A stretch of 64,000 nt of DNA, taken from contig JBBTXE010000001.1 in assembly GCA_038062455.1 (NCBI GenBank), forward strand, positions 122,371 through 186,370, given 5' to 3'. Made by a program: the position numbers and the translations under genes. The stretch comes from Patescibacteria group bacterium (lineage in GTDB: Bacteria; Patescibacteriota; Microgenomatia; UBA12405). Within the stretch, counting starts at the first letter, position 1. Each line of letters opens with the position of its first letter. Shown piece after piece: positions 13,126 to 33,022 of this stretch. A model generated the notes under the pieces. The model saw only the letters and a list, made by a program, of their open reading frames with translations. It did no database searches and was not told where the DNA came from.

Positions 13126-13998
13126 ATGGATAAATACACTGCCGTTTGGGTTTCCCATTCTTCCATTTCCTCTTTTTTAGACTGTCCGCGTTCTTATTAC
13201 CTCAAAAATGTTTATAAAGATCCTAAAAGCGGCCACAAAATTAAACTAATGTCGCCACCCTTAGCTCTGGGGCAGGCCGTTCACGACGTGGTCGAATCTC
13301 TCTCTGGGCTCAAAACTGATCTACGGTTTCGCCAACCCCTAATGGAAAAATTTGAAGATGCTTGGAAAAAAGTAAGCGGCAAACTAGGCGGTTTTGACAA
13401 TGCTGACACTGAATATAAATATAAAAGCCGGGGAGAAGAAATGATTCGCCGGGTGATAAAAAACCCCGGACCTTTAGGCGAACTGGCCGTCAAAATCAAC
13501 ATGGATCTGCCCCACTTTTGGCTCTCCGAGTCCGACAATATTATTCTTTGCGGCAAAATTGACTGGCTTCGCTACCATCCCGACACTGACACTGTTGAAA
13601 TTATTGATTTCAAAACCAGCAAAAATGACGAAGGCCCCGATTCTCTTCAATTACCTATTTATCATTTACTGGTCCACTATTGTCAAAACCGCTCCGTCAC
13701 CGCCGCCTCTTACTGGTATCTCGACCGCTCCAACACTCTGACTCCCCAAAAATTACCCGACTTAGTCAAGTCCCAAGATAAAATTTTAAAAATTGCTAAA
13801 AAGATTAAACTTCAACGATCTTTAAATAAATTCGATTGTCCGGAGGGAGACAAGAGCTGCCGTGCCTGTCGCCCTTACGAAGCGATCCTTAAAGGCGATG
13901 CCGAACTTGTCGGTCAGGATAATTTTAAGGCTGATGTTTACGTTCTTAAAACCAAATCCCTAGATCGTCACAGCTCTTCCTCGGGAACTGTTTTGTGA
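13126..13998 (+). CDS. PD-(D/E)XK nuclease with Cas4/AddB-like Cys cluster
   Basis: N-terminal Cys (FLDCPRSYYL), nuclease core GKIDW...IIDFKTSK, C-terminal CPEGDKSCRACRPYE (Cx6CxxC). Confidence 0.7.
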   Translation: MDKYTAVWVSHSSISSFLDCPRSYYLKNVYKDPKSGHKIKLMSPPLALGQAVHDVVESLSGLKTDLRFRQPLMEKFEDAWKKVSGKLGGFDNADTEYKYKSRGEEMIRRVIKNPGPLGELAVKINMDLPHFWLSESDNIILCGKIDWLRYHPDTDTVEIIDFKTSKNDEGPDSLQLPIYHLLVHYCQNRSVTAASYWYLDRSNTLTPQKLPDLVKSQDKILKIAKKIKLQRSLNKFDCPEGDKSCRACRPYEAILKGDAELVGQDNFKADVYVLKTKSLDRHSSSSGTVL

Positions 13999-14192
13999 GG
14001 TACATAGCCCTTATCTCCGGGTAACAAATATCCTCTGACTTTCGGAGCCGGTGGAATATCCCCAGAATTTATCAGCAAAAAAGGATCGGGGGCACTAAGT
14101 CCTGCAAGAGGAACAGCTCTTAAAACATCTTCTGATAACCCAAATTCACCTTGACGGAATGGATAAGGTTTTTCATCAGGTTTATTATTCAT
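13968..14192 (-). CDS. Hypothetical small protein (74 aa)
   Basis: ORF only. It lies 44 nt downstream of the exonuclease gene on the same strand. The 3' end overlaps the convergent nuclease gene by 31 nt. Confidence 0.3.
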   Translation of the reverse strand: MNNKPDEKPYPFRQGEFGLSEDVLRAVPLAGLSAPDPFLLINSGDIPPAPKVRGYLLPGDKGYVPHKTVPEEEL

Positions 14193-14235: not shown

Positions 14236-14850
14236 CTAAAATAATCCCATTTGTGGTTTCACTTCGATCTTTGGATAACTAAAATCAACTTCAATCATCC
14301 GCGGTGTATTCCATTTATCCTTATATTTTAGTTGTCCGAATTTTTTGCCATAATCATAAACTTCTTTGGTCACCATCACATCCATTTCGCAATATTTTTT
14401 AAGTTTGGAAAGACTCTCTTTGGAGTGTTCCTGCCAGTAATAAACTGCATTTAAGCCGTTATCGATTTTGCCGTGCCCCAAAGTTTCGGAGGCAATGGCA
14501 TTGAGGCTTAGTCGAAACCCCAGCGCCCCCTTGACGTGCTCCATTAGGTCAAAATGTTTTAGTTTTTTAAAGTCATAAGGACAAAGCGGCACCAGCGCCG
14601 GCACGTCAAAATGAAGTGAGTTGAAACCGATAATCCGGTCAGCGTTGCTAAAAAACGGCCACATTTTAGCCAAATCTTCCTCCCAAAAACTACTCATCTC
14701 CCCCTCCGTTTCCGCTCCCTTTTCATCCACTTTTCGCTTATAAACCGAGACTATCGATATCCCCAAATCGGCCGGATTATCACCCTTGATATCATCAAAG
14801 ATTTTTTTGGTTTCAATATCAAAAATAACTTCTGTATAGATTACTGACAT
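14236..14850 (-). CDS. RNase H-like / DEDD 3'-5' exonuclease domain protein
   Basis: VIFDIETKK (ExoI-like), IIGFNSLHFDVPAL (ExoII-like), CEMDV (ExoIII-like). Confidence 0.6.
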   Translation of the reverse strand: MSVIYTEVIFDIETKKIFDDIKGDNPADLGISIVSVYKRKVDEKGAETEGEMSSFWEEDLAKMWPFFSNADRIIGFNSLHFDVPALVPLCPYDFKKLKHFDLMEHVKGALGFRLSLNAIASETLGHGKIDNGLNAVYYWQEHSKESLSKLKKYCEMDVMVTKEVYDYGKKFGQLKYKDKWNTPRMIEVDFSYPKIEVKPQMGLF

Positions 14851-14893
14851 AGTAATCGATAGTAGTAAATATAGGGAGAATGGTCAAGGAAGA

Positions 14894-15436
14894 GCTTTTG
14901 GTGGTTTGTGGGGGGTGTGGTGTTTTTTGGTTGTGGGTTTTGAATGATTGGTTTTGTTTTTTGGGTTGGGGGTGGGTTTTTGTTTTGGTTTCTCTGGCGG
15001 AACGGACGGAAGCTTCCAGCTCCCGTCCGTTAGGTTATGGATTGCTAACTAGCTATAATCTGATCGAAAGCTAGGTCGCAACCATGTTCGCCGCGGTAGT
15101 CGGATCGTTGGCCAATTCCACCACCAGGAAAGGAGCCGAAGTCACAGGGTTCGAGGCTGAAGTTGAACTTGAAAAGCTGGTAAAGCGGGTGCGGTCCATA
15201 AGGACCTCCTTTTTTGAACCTCGGACAAGAAACAACTTACACTTGGATACAAACATCTTGACCTCGATAGGGTCTTGTTGATCGTTGCACCTCCTTTTGG
15301 TGCAAAAACAATGAGTACGGCAGCACAATGCAGCCACCGTTTGATAATACTTCACGATTCCCAAATTTCTGGGTAATCGGCTGCAAGGCGGCTTGGCCGC
15401 CCTCCGGTCGACTACCCAGTTCAAACCACCAAAAGC
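14894..15436. other. ORF-free hairpin-dense domain bounded by a 15-nt inverted repeat; candidate structured RNA or MITE-like element, class unknown
   Basis: gcttttggtggtttg (14894-14908) is the reverse complement of caaaccaccaaaagc (15422-15436). Perfect internal hairpins at 15001-15031, 15049-15074, 15193-15206, 15286-15304 and 15369-15419. Confidence 0.35.
14896..14990. repeat. 95-nt G/T-only low-complexity tract (C/A-only on the minus strand)
   Basis: ttttggtggtttgtggggggtgtggtg...gggttgggggtgggtttttgttttggtt contains no C and only 3 A, with several G3-G6 runs. Confidence 0.9.
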
Positions 15437-15764
15437 CAAGAGATGGTTAAAGCGTGAAATGTTTACCTGCTTTTGGGTAACTTTCACGATTTAAGACTCC
15501 TGGTTTTTGATGTCAGATTGTTAAAGAACTTACATTATTGTAGCACTAACCTTCGCTATTCCACAACTTCTCTTTTTATCACCATTTCCGCTAAATCCGA
15601 CGACTCACGTATAACCTTAAGTTTAACTTCACCGCCAACTTCAAGTTCTTTCCAAAATCAACCCGCGTTCTTCCTGGAAATTTGGTATCTCCATATAAGT
15701 TTCCAACCTTTACTCCATCCCTAATTGATGCCGCCAAAATTACTCCCCGGCCACTAGGGATTAC

Positions 15765-18449
15765 TTAACTGTTCCTCAACACCAAATAACTTAGGATTAA
15801 AAGACCAATCCCGCTGCCCGTCCAATACATTATTCGCCACCACGGATATTGGTTTTCATTGTTGTTTTCTTCAGAAACGTTAACCGCTGTTTCTTCAACT
15901 CCTAAAACGTTTTCTTGGAAATCTTGGGGGGCAGTCTTCCCACTAGTTGTTTTCTGCCCACTCATATCTACCACAAGTTCATTGCTAAAACTACCCGGCA
16001 TGCACCCATTACCGGCCCTGATTTTAAAATAATATTTTTTGCCACCAACAAGACTTTTAACCGTATATTCGGTTGTATCACTATTTCCTATATTTGGATT
16101 GCCAAACATCATTTCTCCGCTTTTTAGCCCAAAAGCCAAAAGGTAATAGGAAACCGGGTTCTCTGCTTTTTCCCATTTTAAAATCACTTCATTGGAGCTA
16201 CTTTTTTCGGCACGAAACATTTTCGGTGCCGATCCCGGTTTTTCATCCTGGCAGAGATCTTTATTTACAGTTGGCGTCGGTGTCGCTGTGGCCTGCCCGC
16301 TTGACTGCGAAGCTGTCGGCGTGGGTGTTGGCGTTGGACCGGGGGTAGCCACATTAACTATTATTTTTCTCTGACCCGAAAAACCGTTATTTCCAGCCTC
16401 ATCCTGACATCTAACTTTATAGTTGTGGCCGCCATTAACTAAATTTTCCATTCTGCCATAAAAATTACCATCCGCCCCCTTTGTCATTGCTATACCTCCG
16501 CCTTCTTCGTTTATTAATAAATCATCAATCCATCCACTGTCAGGATCTTTCGTGACTGAATAATCCTTGGTGTAGTTCCATTTAATAATGTGATCACCGA
16601 CATTTACCGGATAAGAAACCTGTTGCCAATCTTTACTTCCCGAAATATTATTCTTTTCTACCTCATCAACATAAAATCTCAAATAATCAAAACTGTTTTC
16701 ACTTTCCACCTTCCACCAAAAGCCAAGATCCCCGTTGTTAGCAAGCGAAACACTCTGCTTTAACCACGTTTCCACGTTGTCCTTGTTTGCCACATTTCCT
16801 GATTTGGCCGAACAACTGCCGCCGTATTTGTTGGTGCAGTCAACTATCCAGGGAGCAAAACCACCGCTCTCCCAACCATCGATGTTTTGATTTTCAAAAT
16901 CCCCATTTAAAATCATTGATTTCTCAATCCGGCACTCCACGGCTTCATTCGCCTTCGCCCCGATATCGACATAATTAAAAACAACAATAGAGCTGTTATC
17001 TGGCGTTGGGTCAACCAATTCTACCTCCGGTGGCGTTGTATCGACATCACACTCATCGCCAATTCCGTTACCATCACTATCCGATTGGTTTGGATTGGCC
17101 ACATTGACACAGTTGTCGCAAACATCACCTTTTCCGTCTCCGTCTCTATCTATCTGATCAAGGTTGGCCACACTCGGACAATTATCATTCGAGTCGGGAA
17201 TTCCATCACTGTCGCCATCGGGTTCGAGGCAATTTATAGTGTGCGACCCCAAATAACCAAAAGTATTGATGGCATATCCGTCCCACTCCGTCGCCGGGTC
17301 AAAGATATTCGCCCCATTTGCATCTCCCTGGCTAATTCCGCATTTTCTCATCAAGCTATTATCAGCCGTACTGGCTAAGCCGCTACCCCATTCCGTTCCC
17401 GGATCGACCCCAATTTGTCCAATTACATCAACCGCACTCGCACCATAAAAGAGAGCCACCGCATCATCACCATTAAAATCAAGAGAACCTGTTAGCAAAT
17501 CGCACTGATCCAAAATCGATGCCTCGATTCTCGAATTGCATACGACATAGACGTCATTGGCGTTTATTGTTTGAGATAAATTAATGGTTGTGCCGGCACT
17601 ACCTGCCCCGTTGGTAAATATCTTGACTGAATATCCGCTTAAACCAATTGCTAAGTTTGTCGGGTTGTAAATCTCGATGGCTTTGTTATAACTGCTCCCT
17701 TCAATATATTCTGAGAAAAATAAATAATTAATTTCCGGTGAGTCAGTAAATTTTGCGTAACTTACTAAATTGCCCGACGTATCAAAAAGCTCGACTAAAT
17801 AATTTGGACGATACGTACCGTCAAGTTGATAACTATAAGTAAAAGTTCCAAACGCATCGCCAAAGATTGGATAGGAAACATTTAAATTATCAGCCGTAAT
17901 TTTTAAAGTATAAGTTGTGTTTGGTAGAAAACTTTTACCGGAAATAATGGCAATTTCCCTGGGAGTATAGTCAGCCTTATCGGTACTTATATTTGGATTT
18001 AACAAATCCGTCCGACTGCTGTTATTCTCCCGAATCACAGTTTCAATTATTCCAGAAACCACCGTTGTGGTTGGGGTCGCGGTTGGAATTACAACCGGTG
18101 TCGGCGAAATAATAGTTTCATCAGCTTTTTTTTCGATAATTTTTTCTGTTGGGATGATGGTAAATTCAGGTGTTAATATTGCCGTAGGAGTAGCGATTTC
18201 AGTTGGAGTTATCTCAATAATCGGCATTGCCGTGGGACTGGCTTCTTTTGTCGGAACAATTTCAATCGTCGGAACAATGGTTACTTCTATTTCTGTTAGT
18301 ACCGAACTCGGAATTTCCGTTGGGCTAATAATTTCTGCGCTCGATGAAGCTTCTTCATTAGCCAGTATTAGCAGGGGATTGACCAAAACACTTATCAAAA
18401 TGTTTATATAAACGAAAGTTCGAAAGAAACTCATCCATCTTCGATTCAT
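15765..18449 (-). CDS. Large secreted surface protein: PT/I-rich linker, lamin-tail domain, thrombospondin type-3 Ca-binding repeats, Fn3-like module, C-terminal TM anchor
   Basis: Signal/TM N-terminus. LTD pattern LFFSEYIEGSSYNKAIEIYNPTNLAIGLSGYSV. TSP3 repeats DSDGIPDSNDNCPSVANLDQIDRDGDGKGDVCDNCVNVANPNQSDSDGNGIGDECD. C-terminal WWRIMYWTGSGIGLLILSYLVL. Confidence 0.8.
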   Translation of the reverse strand: MNRRWMSFFRTFVYINILISVLVNPLLILANEEASSSAEIISPTEIPSSVLTEIEVTIVPTIEIVPTKEASPTAMPIIEITPTEIATPTAILTPEFTIIPTEKIIEKKADETIISPTPVVIPTATPTTTVVSGIIETVIRENNSSRTDLLNPNISTDKADYTPREIAIISGKSFLPNTTYTLKITADNLNVSYPIFGDAFGTFTYSYQLDGTYRPNYLVELFDTSGNLVSYAKFTDSPEINYLFFSEYIEGSSYNKAIEIYNPTNLAIGLSGYSVKIFTNGAGSAGTTINLSQTINANDVYVVCNSRIEASILDQCDLLTGSLDFNGDDAVALFYGASAVDVIGQIGVDPGTEWGSGLASTADNSLMRKCGISQGDANGANIFDPATEWDGYAINTFGYLGSHTINCLEPDGDSDGIPDSNDNCPSVANLDQIDRDGDGKGDVCDNCVNVANPNQSDSDGNGIGDECDVDTTPPEVELVDPTPDNSSIVVFNYVDIGAKANEAVECRIEKSMILNGDFENQNIDGWESGGFAPWIVDCTNKYGGSCSAKSGNVANKDNVETWLKQSVSLANNGDLGFWWKVESENSFDYLRFYVDEVEKNNISGSKDWQQVSYPVNVGDHIIKWNYTKDYSVTKDPDSGWIDDLLINEEGGGIAMTKGADGNFYGRMENLVNGGHNYKVRCQDEAGNNGFSGQRKIIVNVATPGPTPTPTPTASQSSGQATATPTPTVNKDLCQDEKPGSAPKMFRAEKSSSNEVILKWEKAENPVSYYLLAFGLKSGEMMFGNPNIGNSDTTEYTVKSLVGGKKYYFKIRAGNGCMPGSFSNELVVDMSGQKTTSGKTAPQDFQENVLGVEETAVNVSEENNNENQYPWWRIMYWTGSGIGLLILSYLVLRNS

Positions 18450-32261: not shown

Positions 32262-32567
32262 CTTCGTGGAAATCGATAAGCCGGATTCTGTTTATGGGCC
32301 ATCTATCTAATCTCTCCACCTGGTGCTCTTAAAGTCAAAAGCATAACGCACCGATTTGAGATTTCCACGGAAAGGTTGCCCGTTTCATATCATCCTCGGT
32401 CCGGCTAAAGCCGAGACCGGGACTACTCGTCTCTGTTGCAGAGCCGTCCGATTGCTCGGACCCCTACCTATTCGGGTTTCCTGACTTTGGTGGTCCGGAC
32501 TTTCCTTTTCACCTCGCCGAAGCCGTTAGGCGTAGGCGGGCTATTAGCCCTTCAATTTCTCCGAAGT
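32262..32567 (-). ncRNA. rnpB: RNase P RNA, bacterial type A, short (~305 nt)
   Basis: The minus-strand reading contains AAAAGGAAAGUCCGGACC (CR-I), GCAACAGAGA, UUAAGAGCACC and ACAGAAUCCGGCUUAUCG (CR-V). P1 pairs acuucggagaaau (5') with auuuccacgaagu (3'). Ends are +/-10 nt. Confidence 0.92.
32513..32540 (+). repeat. Hairpin repeat, GCGTAGGCGGG family, copy 3 (inside rnpB, P3-region hairpin)
   Basis: ctcgccgaagccgttaggcgtaggcggg. In the RNA sense this is cccgccuacgccuaacggcuucggcgag, immediately 5' of CR-I. Confidence 0.7.
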
Positions 32568-32655
32568 TGCTTTATTTTAACATTTTTCCGCCGTGGTGGA
32601 CCAAAAATCCCCTCGGCATAGCCGGGGGAACTTTTGAATCTTGCTAAAAGACAAG

Positions 32656-32832
32656 TTAACTTAACGTGGCTGCATCAGCAGCGGATAAAATCTTGAACAT
32701 TTTAACTCCGGTGGCTGGATCAATCGCTTGAGCGGCCGGTCGGCCGTTTTTAAGCATCACTTTCGTAACTTTAGATACATCTACTTCAACTGTCTTTCTT
32801 GATTTAACTGAATAAAACTTGATGGTTGGCAT
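32656..32832 (-). CDS. Small protein (58 aa), Cys-less DUF5679-like
   Basis: Below the track cutoff. Strong RBS aaaaaggaggtgagcatttataATG. MPTIKFYSVKSRKTVEVDVSKVTKVMLKNGRPAAQAIDPATGVKMFKILSAADAATLS. Confidence 0.55.
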   Translation of the reverse strand: MPTIKFYSVKSRKTVEVDVSKVTKVMLKNGRPAAQAIDPATGVKMFKILSAADAATLS

Positions 32833-32864
32833 TATAAATGCTCACCTCCTTTTTAAATCTATAT

Positions 32865-32981
32865 TCACTTCCAAACATAATACATTGTAACTACGATTGC
32901 AATAGCGGCTACACTTAACAGGAAACTTTTGAGCAAATCTCGGCCAAGATTCGAGTTGCTTTTTTCCTCTACTGGCTTCAT
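32865..32981 (-). CDS. Possible 38-aa membrane peptide
   Basis: GGAG 5 nt upstream of the ATG. MKPVEEKSNSNLGRDLLKSFLLSVAAIAIVVTMYYVWK has one TM helix. Speculative. Confidence 0.25.
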   Translation of the reverse strand: MKPVEEKSNSNLGRDLLKSFLLSVAAIAIVVTMYYVWK

Positions 32982-33022
32982 CAGCTCCAGTATAGCATCC
33001 ATTCTGTTAGAATTAATAACCA

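Follow-up and report, generated by a model that had tools for sequence, protein, structure and literature searches.

A previously undescribed structured RNA element with an embedded small open reading frame upstream of an exonuclease gene in Shapirobacteria-like Patescibacteria

What occupies the 914 nucleotides (nt) between two genes at positions 14851 to 15764 of a 64,000-nt stretch of contig JBBTXE010000001.1 (assembly GCA_038062455.1, a Patescibacteria group bacterium), and does this DNA act as DNA, as RNA, or through a protein? The whole stretch is referred to here as the window. The region is flanked by a gene for a 204-amino-acid (aa) exonuclease and by an 894-aa surface-protein gene (15765-18449, minus strand). 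A first-pass annotation, made from the letters of the window, had proposed a large structured noncoding RNA, most plausibly read from the minus strand. We found that the 914 nt are composite, consisting of a pseudogene remnant, promoter DNA, and a conserved, highly structured RNA unit of approximately 640 nt (about 15530-14894, minus strand). The proposal thus held for the structure, the strand, and the lack of a match to any known class; the RNA covers only about 640 of the 914 nt and is not purely noncoding. In our view, the element is real and represents a structured RNA family not described before, in which a small open reading frame (ORF) is embedded; it is carried by a few groundwater bacteria, a minority of the Shapirobacteria-like Patescibacteria.

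Homologs were sought with nhmmer and then with a covariance model in 79 species-representative loci around exonuclease homologs and in further loci reached via additional exonuclease proteins. Full-length homologs were detected at the same place in nine other Shapirobacteria-like contigs. All share the strand of the exonuclease gene and lie immediately upstream of it, their 3' arm being 38 to 61 nt from the exonuclease ATG. Four belonged to the species representatives (L042, L045, L018, and L015; 4/79), and five were obtained through the further exonuclease proteins (L091, L095, L100, L103, and L105). L092 and L096 are second assemblies of the L091 and L095 loci, and L090, L101, and L104 carry partial copies. 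The window, L091, L042, and L045 constitute subfamily 1, and the other six members constitute subfamily 2. The order of parts (Table 1) is shared by all 10 full-length members.

In an alignment of the 10 sequences, compensatory changes were present in the hairpins P1, P3, and P4 and in the long-range helix that closes the domain, which points to a fold preserved by compensatory mutations. Of the 24 consensus pairs in P1, 10 showed compensatory changes, and 95 to 100% of the P1 cells were paired. P3 was found in every member, although the sequences differ, and 16 of its 20 consensus pairs showed compensatory changes. For P1 and P3 together, 93.5% of the cells were paired and 26 of the 44 pairs had changed on both sides; none of 500 column shuffles matched the observed pairing, covariation score, or number of compensatory pairs, and sliding the partners by one to three columns lowered pairing to 40 to 57%. 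The 12 core pairs of the closing helix were retained in 9 or 10 of the 10 sequences (slid controls, 28 to 46%), four positions carried a two-sided change from one subfamily to the other (G-C/A-U, U-A/C-G, U-A/C-G, and U-A/G-C), and the helix appeared in the minimum-free-energy (MFE) fold of each member. This helix is 12 to 15 bp long and encloses a domain of 380 to 540 nt. A hairpin of approximately 7 to 16 bp, different in sequence, occupies the position of P4 in nine members; the one in L042 was read by eye and lies slightly farther upstream, and the compensatory pairs of P4 were counted in subfamily 2.

Conservation is unevenly distributed along the element. When the window is compared with its nearest relative, L091, the segment that starts at the -10 box and ends with the 5' arm of the closing helix is 91% identical, P3 is 47% identical (with the structure kept), the middle 37%, the Shine-Dalgarno (SD) sequence and small ORF 67%, the G-free tract 56%, the segment between the 3' arm and the exonuclease ATG 90%, and the exonuclease gene 80%. 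P1 has a base of CCAGGAG/CUCUUGG, a core of CGUGAAA/UUUCACG, and an inner stem that covaries. The 5' arm follows a short leader and P1 and thus sits approximately 100 nt from the 5' end of the RNA. TGYTACAAT occurs at an equal distance from P1 in 7 of the 10 members; the box of L091 is TACAAT without the TG, and that of L042 and L045 is TATAAT, located farther upstream.

Table 1. Coordinates of the RNA element and of the features around it (window positions)
Feature	Position	Strand	Description
Extended -10 promoter TGCTACAAT	15537-15545	-	Start near 15530 predicted from the sequence
P1, long irregular hairpin	15436-15503	-	About 70 nt; block with the highest sequence conservation
5' arm of long-range closing helix GCUUUUGGUGGUUUG	15422-15436	-	Perfect complement of 14894-14908
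P3 hairpin	15369-15419	-	CUGGGUA...UACCCAG, inner GGCGGC/GCCGCC
Small hairpin presenting SD-like AAAAGGAGG	15286-15304	-	No start codon downstream; read by inspection of the sequence
Small ORF MDRTRFTSFSSSTSASNPVTSAPFLVVELANDPTTAANMVAT	15071-15199	-	42 codons and stop; SD AAGGAGG at 15205-15211
Stop-codon hairpin CUAGCU-N14-AGCUAG	15049-15074	-	Includes the UAG stop of the small ORF
P4, strong GC hairpin	15001-15031	-	Directly before the G-free tract; no U-run after it
G-free C-rich tract	14909-14991	-	83 nt (A45 C35 U3 G0); rut-like composition
3' arm of closing helix CAAACCACCAAAAGC	14894-14908	-	Pairs with the 5' arm
Exonuclease promoter	14851-14887	-	TTGACC, 17 nt, TACTAT (14887-14859), 8 nt to SD-less ATG; promoter scan
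3'-5' exonuclease, RNase_H_2/PolB-exonuclease-like	14236-14850	-	204 aa; PF13482 (1.4e-12), PF10108 (3.5e-6)
Remnant of 116- to 120-aa ORF family	15562-15764	-	Frameshifted and N-terminally truncated; tblastn; outside the RNA unit

These observations bear on the possibility that the region is a decayed gene or a neutral spacer without function. Its upstream part truly is a pseudogene remnant: the 120-aa ORF of L091 matched the window by tblastn with 61% identity over 46 aa (15764-15627) and, in another frame, 54% over 28 aa (15645-15562; E value, 2.8e-16). This ORF family had no Pfam match, and ORFs of 116 to 120 aa occur upstream of the exonuclease gene or of the element in relatives (L091 1489-2259, L093 2617-2967, and L102 51-413). 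For positions 14894 to 15545, the neutral reading is already contradicted by compensatory substitutions in four helices, by a block whose conservation exceeds that of the adjacent protein-coding gene, and by a conserved promoter, and we give it almost no weight.

The features of the window itself were largely as first described. The perfect 15-nt inverted repeat lies exactly at 14894-14908 and 15422-15436; no repeat of this length arose in 500 shuffles of the 914 nt, the longest being 13 nt. The repeat does close a domain, which is 543 nt long and not the whole region. The G/T tract at 14896-14990 was confirmed (52 T, 40 G, 3 A, and no C), and the window has no longer C-free run than the one that contains it (14896-14991, 96 nt; expectation from base composition, approximately 1e-7). 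All six hairpins listed earlier are present, the higher GC content was borne out (45.3%, versus 41.1% for the window), and the whole region folds better than dinucleotide shuffles (z = -3.7 and -4.5 for the plus and minus strands, respectively). The description "ORF-free" did not survive. A 138-aa ORF had been set aside as implausible, and most of it is indeed spurious, as is the corresponding "gene" in public assemblies; its last 42 codons, the exception, are the SD-preceded small ORF, which is conserved in L091. This ORF is also not the only one, because three others of at least 50 aa overlap the region. The region qualifies as the largest noncoding gap only when the 138-aa ORF is ignored and gaps in two places are left out of account: the window start and 32262-33022, where the RNase P RNA lies. 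A recoded or frameshifted gene spanning the gap was rejected, as six-frame translation gave no long frame.

The earlier failure to recognize a known RNA class was upheld. A search of the region with the Rfam 15 covariance models, which cover tmRNA, SRP, 6S, RNase P, group I and II introns, OLE, ROOL, GOLLD, HEARO, raiA, T-box, and other families, gave nothing at the gathering threshold and only chance-level matches (18 bits or less) at an E value of ≤10; Rfam searches of the homologous loci gave nothing relevant. A tmRNA or permuted tmRNA was rejected with ARAGORN and Rfam, as no T-arm or CCA end was found and the ORF has an SD and an AUG. T-box and K-turn ideas were without Rfam support.

Transcription from the exonuclease (minus) strand is favored because the G-U excess, the forward promoter, the SD-preceded AUG ORFs, and the G-free tract are all found on that strand. 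The cells of P1 and P3 contain 25 G-U versus 8 A-C combinations, and the forward extended -10 box is conserved. We found neither a conserved antisense extended -10 box nor a plus-strand promoter match within the element, and the reverse complement of P1 would resemble a terminator. The property of the tract that is conserved across members is the lack of G on the minus strand, whether the tract is made of C and A or of C and U. A hydrophobic plus-strand ORF (14880-15074) was considered as a toxin and rejected: its ATG is ATT in the nearest relative, and the G/A-rich complement of the tract in L042 and L045 also counts against it.

Functions at the level of DNA, either as an inverton bounded by the repeats or as a G-quadruplex or R-loop tract, are hardly tenable. 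Recombination could also maintain perfectly matched repeats, and the plus strand of the window has five runs of three or more G's. The element has the same internal orientation in nine assemblies of the organism's locus and in 10 independent homologs, no recombinase is encoded among the neighboring genes scanned, and in one member the core of the helix includes a G-U pair that would be a mismatch on the opposite strand. The G-quadruplex potential noted earlier is not conserved, the runs dropping to one (a single C3+ run in the minus-strand tract) in L105 and L015.

The distribution of the element is that of an accessory cassette between an upstream gene and the exonuclease promoter, and not of a universal leader, because most relatives lack it and their exonuclease gene then directly follows another gene. 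Relatives with 85 to 89% identical exonucleases are among those without the element, including relatives of the window with 85 to 88% identity. In L095, the gene for the Y-family polymerase DinB is separated from the exonuclease gene by 668 nt that include the element; in L098, whose exonuclease is closely related, the dinB stop codon is followed after 21 nt by the exonuclease gene. The exonuclease gene probably needs no promoter from the element, as its own predicted -10 box is found in genomes with and without it. In the clade of subfamily 2, this is an extended -10 box (TGATATTCT) 8 to 9 nt before an SD-less ATG, and the exonuclease mRNA is probably leaderless (window 14851-14887 and L098 2460-2503).

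Presence and absence among close relatives, together with the perfect inverted repeats, could suggest a nonautonomous element resembling a miniature inverted-repeat transposable element (MITE), with the 15-nt repeats as its termini. The right end of subfamily-2 elements (GTTGAACAAATTAGTACAAAGGTGATATTCT; L018 3950-3985, L095 2955-2990, and L105 2080-2115) resembles the dinB 3' end plus exonuclease promoter of the element-free loci L098, L016, and L014, as a duplicated target might; relics resembling the dinB 3' end also lie on the left side in L103 and L015, where no dinB gene is adjacent. These dinB-end-like sequences may be duplicated insertion targets. A similar relic beside the L091 element was withdrawn, the sequence being the end of the 120-aa ORF. 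The repeats, however, are not terminal, since the promoter and P1 are conserved for approximately 110 nt beyond the 5' arm; no direct repeats (target-site duplications) flank the arms; and the internal hairpins covary like an RNA. With the covariance model, a single copy was detected in the window (15507-15366, minus strand) and no additional one in 728 kb of related loci, a DNA-pattern scan of metagenomes gave one truncated match, and two patterns searched in viral contigs gave none. The MITE alternative raised by the first-pass annotation is therefore very improbable.

The SD-preceded AUG ORF occupies the same position in 8 of the 10 members and has 17 to 46 codons. Between the window and L091, it contains two indels, of 12 and 3 nt, both in frame; by a hand count from the alignment, approximately 7 of 15 codon changes were synonymous and 8 were not. 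The stem of the stop-codon hairpin is preserved in L091 with a different loop. The SD had a predicted unpaired probability of 0.34 to 0.92 across members. Each of the eight ORF-bearing members also has an A-rich AGGAGG motif midway along the element (approximately 15298-15288 in the window). By inspection, the peptides are polar or mixed and contain no hydrophobic run of transmembrane length. They matched no Pfam or NCBIfam model, and protein searches with the peptide and with the 138-aa ORF returned the same organism only. The small ORF is probably translated. The peptide cannot be the core function of the element, since the ORF is missing from L042 and L045.

A G-free run of 39 to 83 nt precedes the 3' arm in all 10 members, composed of C and A in eight and of C and U in L042 and L045. 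Its predicted unpaired probability was 0.57 to 0.88, versus 0.39 to 0.45 for the whole RNA. Tract and arm together span 52 to 98 nt with 28 to 48% C and 1 to 3% G, and the maximum excess of C over G (%C - %G) in 78 nt was 23 to 47 across members. Rho utilization (rut) sites are described as unpaired stretches of 60 to 80 nt that are rich in C and poor in G; %CA, %CT, %AAC, %ACA, and %CAC are among the most discriminating descriptors, and every C>G bubble of more than 78 bp that was tested terminated transcription in vitro (PMC6144790). In terms of sequence and predicted fold, the tract with its arm fits this description, being predicted to be unstructured and having C much above G. No intrinsic terminator follows P4. 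Rho-type termination is proposed because the composition and length of the tract fit the rut description, the tract is predicted to be unpaired, and this terminator is lacking. A further G-free run, in L026, was rejected as a merely AT-rich promoter before a small gene.

On this basis, our leading reading, which we hold with slightly less than even confidence, is that the element is an independently transcribed closed-loop RNA that doubles as the mRNA of a fast-evolving peptide and ends in a rut-like insulator and a helix-capped 3' end. The unit would be transcribed alone as a folded RNA and would also serve as the mRNA of the short, fast-evolving peptide. Rho would load on the G-free, C-rich tract and stop transcription just before the leaderless promoter of the exonuclease gene, and termination at the tract would insulate that promoter. 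The 3' arm would then anneal to the 5' arm and lock the 3' end onto the 5' region; by this means, the closing helix would shield an otherwise hairpin-less 3' end from 3'-to-5' trimming and yield a stable closed-loop RNA. P1 would be the likeliest recognition module for a partner.

Several observations weigh against this reading. The start and end of the transcript and its dependence on Rho are read from sequence. No Rho was found among the scanned ORFs of the 64-kb window, and a literature search on Rho in bacteria of the candidate phyla radiation (CPR) found no report. The tracts of subfamily 2 are more A-rich than C-rich (28 to 38% C), and the (YC-N9-13)x4 motif is absent in 5 of the 10 members. 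L042 and L045 keep the RNA architecture without the small ORF, and in a seven-sequence alignment the peptides were only 19 to 26% identical to the reference peptide. The closing helix by itself does not discriminate between strands (1 G-U versus 6 A-C cells), and inverted repeats maintained at the DNA level would covary likewise. Finally, because the exonuclease gene was the route to all of the loci, the tight linkage could point to a cis-regulatory role instead.

Such a role is the content of the strongest rival, an exonuclease leader in which a leader peptide and a rut site bring about Rho-dependent attenuation as in tnaC-tnaA and mgtL-mgtA. Translation of the small ORF, or alternative pairing of the P1 base versus the closing helix or of a G-rich motif with the C-runs, would decide whether Rho stops before the exonuclease gene. 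Its rank among the rivals derives from the strict adjacency of the element to the exonuclease gene, on the same strand, and from these possible pairings: the outer nucleotides of the 5' arm are able to pair with either the P1 base or the 3' arm, and the G-rich motif after P3 is paired with C-runs of the tract in MFE folds. An ORF of variable sequence in a fixed position would fit a leader peptide, and the rut-like tract lies between it and the exonuclease gene. The G-rich motif (UAGGGGGAAA..GGG in subfamily 2, e.g., L018 3573-3595; UUUGGG in the window, 15352-15364) could form a tertiary contact or mask the rut site; covariation is uninformative for this predicted pairing because all pairs are G-C. 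We nevertheless consider an attenuator unlikely. Most relatives are element-free, the exonuclease gene keeps its own predicted promoter with or without the element, and a read-through transcript would carry an internal SD-less start because that promoter is close to the SD-less ATG. The ORF stop is 66 to 80 nt and two hairpins away from the tract, so that a terminating ribosome could not shield it, and L042 and L045 have no ORF to translate. A general leader function, one of the two minus-strand options given in the first-pass annotation, is not supported. Pairing of the RNA 5' region with the exonuclease start codon was also considered and rejected; by inspection, it involves merely 5 to 7 nt and is inconsistent between subfamilies.

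A type I toxin-antitoxin-like or selfish addiction cassette, which we rate as improbable, would consist of a fold-back mRNA whose small toxic peptide stays untranslated until 3' processing and of an antisense RNA over P1 as the antitoxin. The long-distance helix between the 5' and 3' parts, the long structured 5' untranslated region, and the small ORF are descriptors of type I systems, 5'-3' long-distance interactions being a defining one of the toxin mRNAs (PMC8594479). Some close relatives have the element and others do not, the dinB-exonuclease junction showing an insertion polymorphism, and the element and exonuclease trees may disagree: the window element groups with L042, and the window exonuclease is 78% identical to that of L018 and 65% identical to that of L042. 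A P1 block more conserved than the adjacent coding DNA would be expected where two RNAs overlap. Membership fails, however, at the toxin, as the peptides of 17 to 46 aa share little identity, are not hydrophobic, have no transmembrane-length segment, and are missing from two members. Sequestration of the SD is not consistent across members, the search for a conserved antisense promoter gave none, and the 5' arm lies approximately 100 nt inside the RNA instead of at its 5' end.

We also considered, with low expectation, that the element founds a new class of closed-loop regulatory RNAs of CPR bacteria, approximately 0.6 kb long, in which P1 and the G-free strand act in trans. Such an RNA might offer Rho, or a different factor that binds single-stranded RNA, a decoy or a platform for loading, or it might be a regulator or substrate of the adjacent DinB-associated proofreading-type exonuclease, the peptide being secondary. 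Alternatively, it would be a protein-less cassette that specifically colonizes the dinB-exonuclease junction.

The exonuclease is a context gene and is not shown to be part of the element. The protein is identical on Hainich groundwater contigs, and 1,285 homologs were found in Microgenomates, with source names of Shapirobacteria, Woesebacteria, or Patescibacteria. In several relatives whose upstream gene was examined, the gene directly follows the Y-family polymerase (IMS/dinB) gene (L095 1121-3606, L098 1268-3106, L100 645-3106, L105 201-2731, and L097 1310-3124); this arrangement suggests that DinB and the exonuclease form a pair. The dinB-exonuclease junction is a hot spot for inserted cassettes, among them the RNA element, the ORFs of 120 aa, and, in L103, a methyltransferase. 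The promoters of the dinB operons also look leaderless and carry a direct repeat, TTCGGG-N5-6-TTCGG, over the -35 and -10 boxes (L100 350-400, L095 840-880, L091 1-30, and L098 985-1025), which is a candidate operator. An operator shared with the element was rejected, as the repeat is absent from the element promoter.

The flanking genes of the window encode the surface protein, an M28 peptidase, the exonuclease, a PD-(D/E)XK nuclease, a PMT_2 protein, and a DUF4349 protein. The PD-(D/E)XK (Cas4-like) nuclease gene (13126-13998, plus strand) converges on the exonuclease gene, and a 74-aa ORF of no known family (13968-14192, minus strand) lies between them; this neighborhood is conserved in relatives, some of which have a PIN/MazE pair inserted. 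In L106 (ERZ1286166 contig_6136), which represents the same organism, the surface-protein and exonuclease genes are fragmented, apparently by sequencing errors; the "proteins" P0121 and P0123 predicted over the element there are artifacts, and the frameshift in P0121 is uninformative. Elsewhere in the window, the best model for the RNase P RNA (32268-32560, minus strand) was the archaeal RF00373 (95.5 bits), in a Patescibacteria genome, and the adjoining 401-nt stretch (32622-33022) contains no ORF of at least 60 aa.

Very few regulatory RNAs have, to our knowledge, been characterized in CPR bacteria/Patescibacteria. The element adds a covariation-supported RNA family of approximately 600 nt that is absent from Rfam, with an unusual topology in which a long-range helix surrounds hairpins, a mini-ORF that is probably translated, and an extended single strand free of G. 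Should the tract prove to be a Rho site, it would provide a handle on how units lacking intrinsic terminators are terminated and insulated in reduced genomes. Should the RNA work with the exonuclease, whose gene in several relatives follows dinB, RNA regulation and DNA damage tolerance would be connected in uncultivated bacteria.

Comparison with known systems places the element near several of them. A retron msr-msd was rejected: an inverted repeat is present, but no reverse transcriptase is encoded by the flanking genes. The element resembles OLE, ROOL, GOLLD, raiA, and HEARO in being large, supported by covariation, and restricted to a lineage. It differs from them in matching none of their models at an E value of ≤10, in having a translatable ORF, and in its narrower known distribution (4/79). 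RNAIII of Staphylococcus aureus, an RNA of approximately 0.5 kb, combines many hairpins, long-range helices, a short peptide ORF, and C-rich unpaired 3' sequence. The element is similar in size and in each of these respects. The C-rich motifs of RNAIII sit in hairpin loops, in contrast to the one long linear G-free tract of the element, and the two share no sequence or Rfam similarity.

We know of no counterpart in hok- or aapA-type mRNAs to a 39- to 83-nt G-free tract within the loop. Like hok/Sok and aapA/IsoA, the element is an accessory locus of patchy distribution with a structured transcript of a few hundred nucleotides, a small ORF, and a closing 5'-3' long-distance helix (PMC8594479). 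Unlike theirs, its peptide is nonhydrophobic, very variable, and absent in two members; its 5' arm follows a 5' region of approximately 100 nt; its SD is not clearly sequestered; and no antisense RNA gene was detected for it. With Rho-dependent terminators (rut sites) and leader-peptide attenuators such as tnaC-tnaA and mgtL-mgtA, it shares a predicted unpaired stretch of suitable length that is rich in C and poor in G (PMC6144790), located between a short ORF and a gene. It differs from them in that a conserved predicted promoter belongs to the downstream gene itself and a long-range helix encloses the tract.

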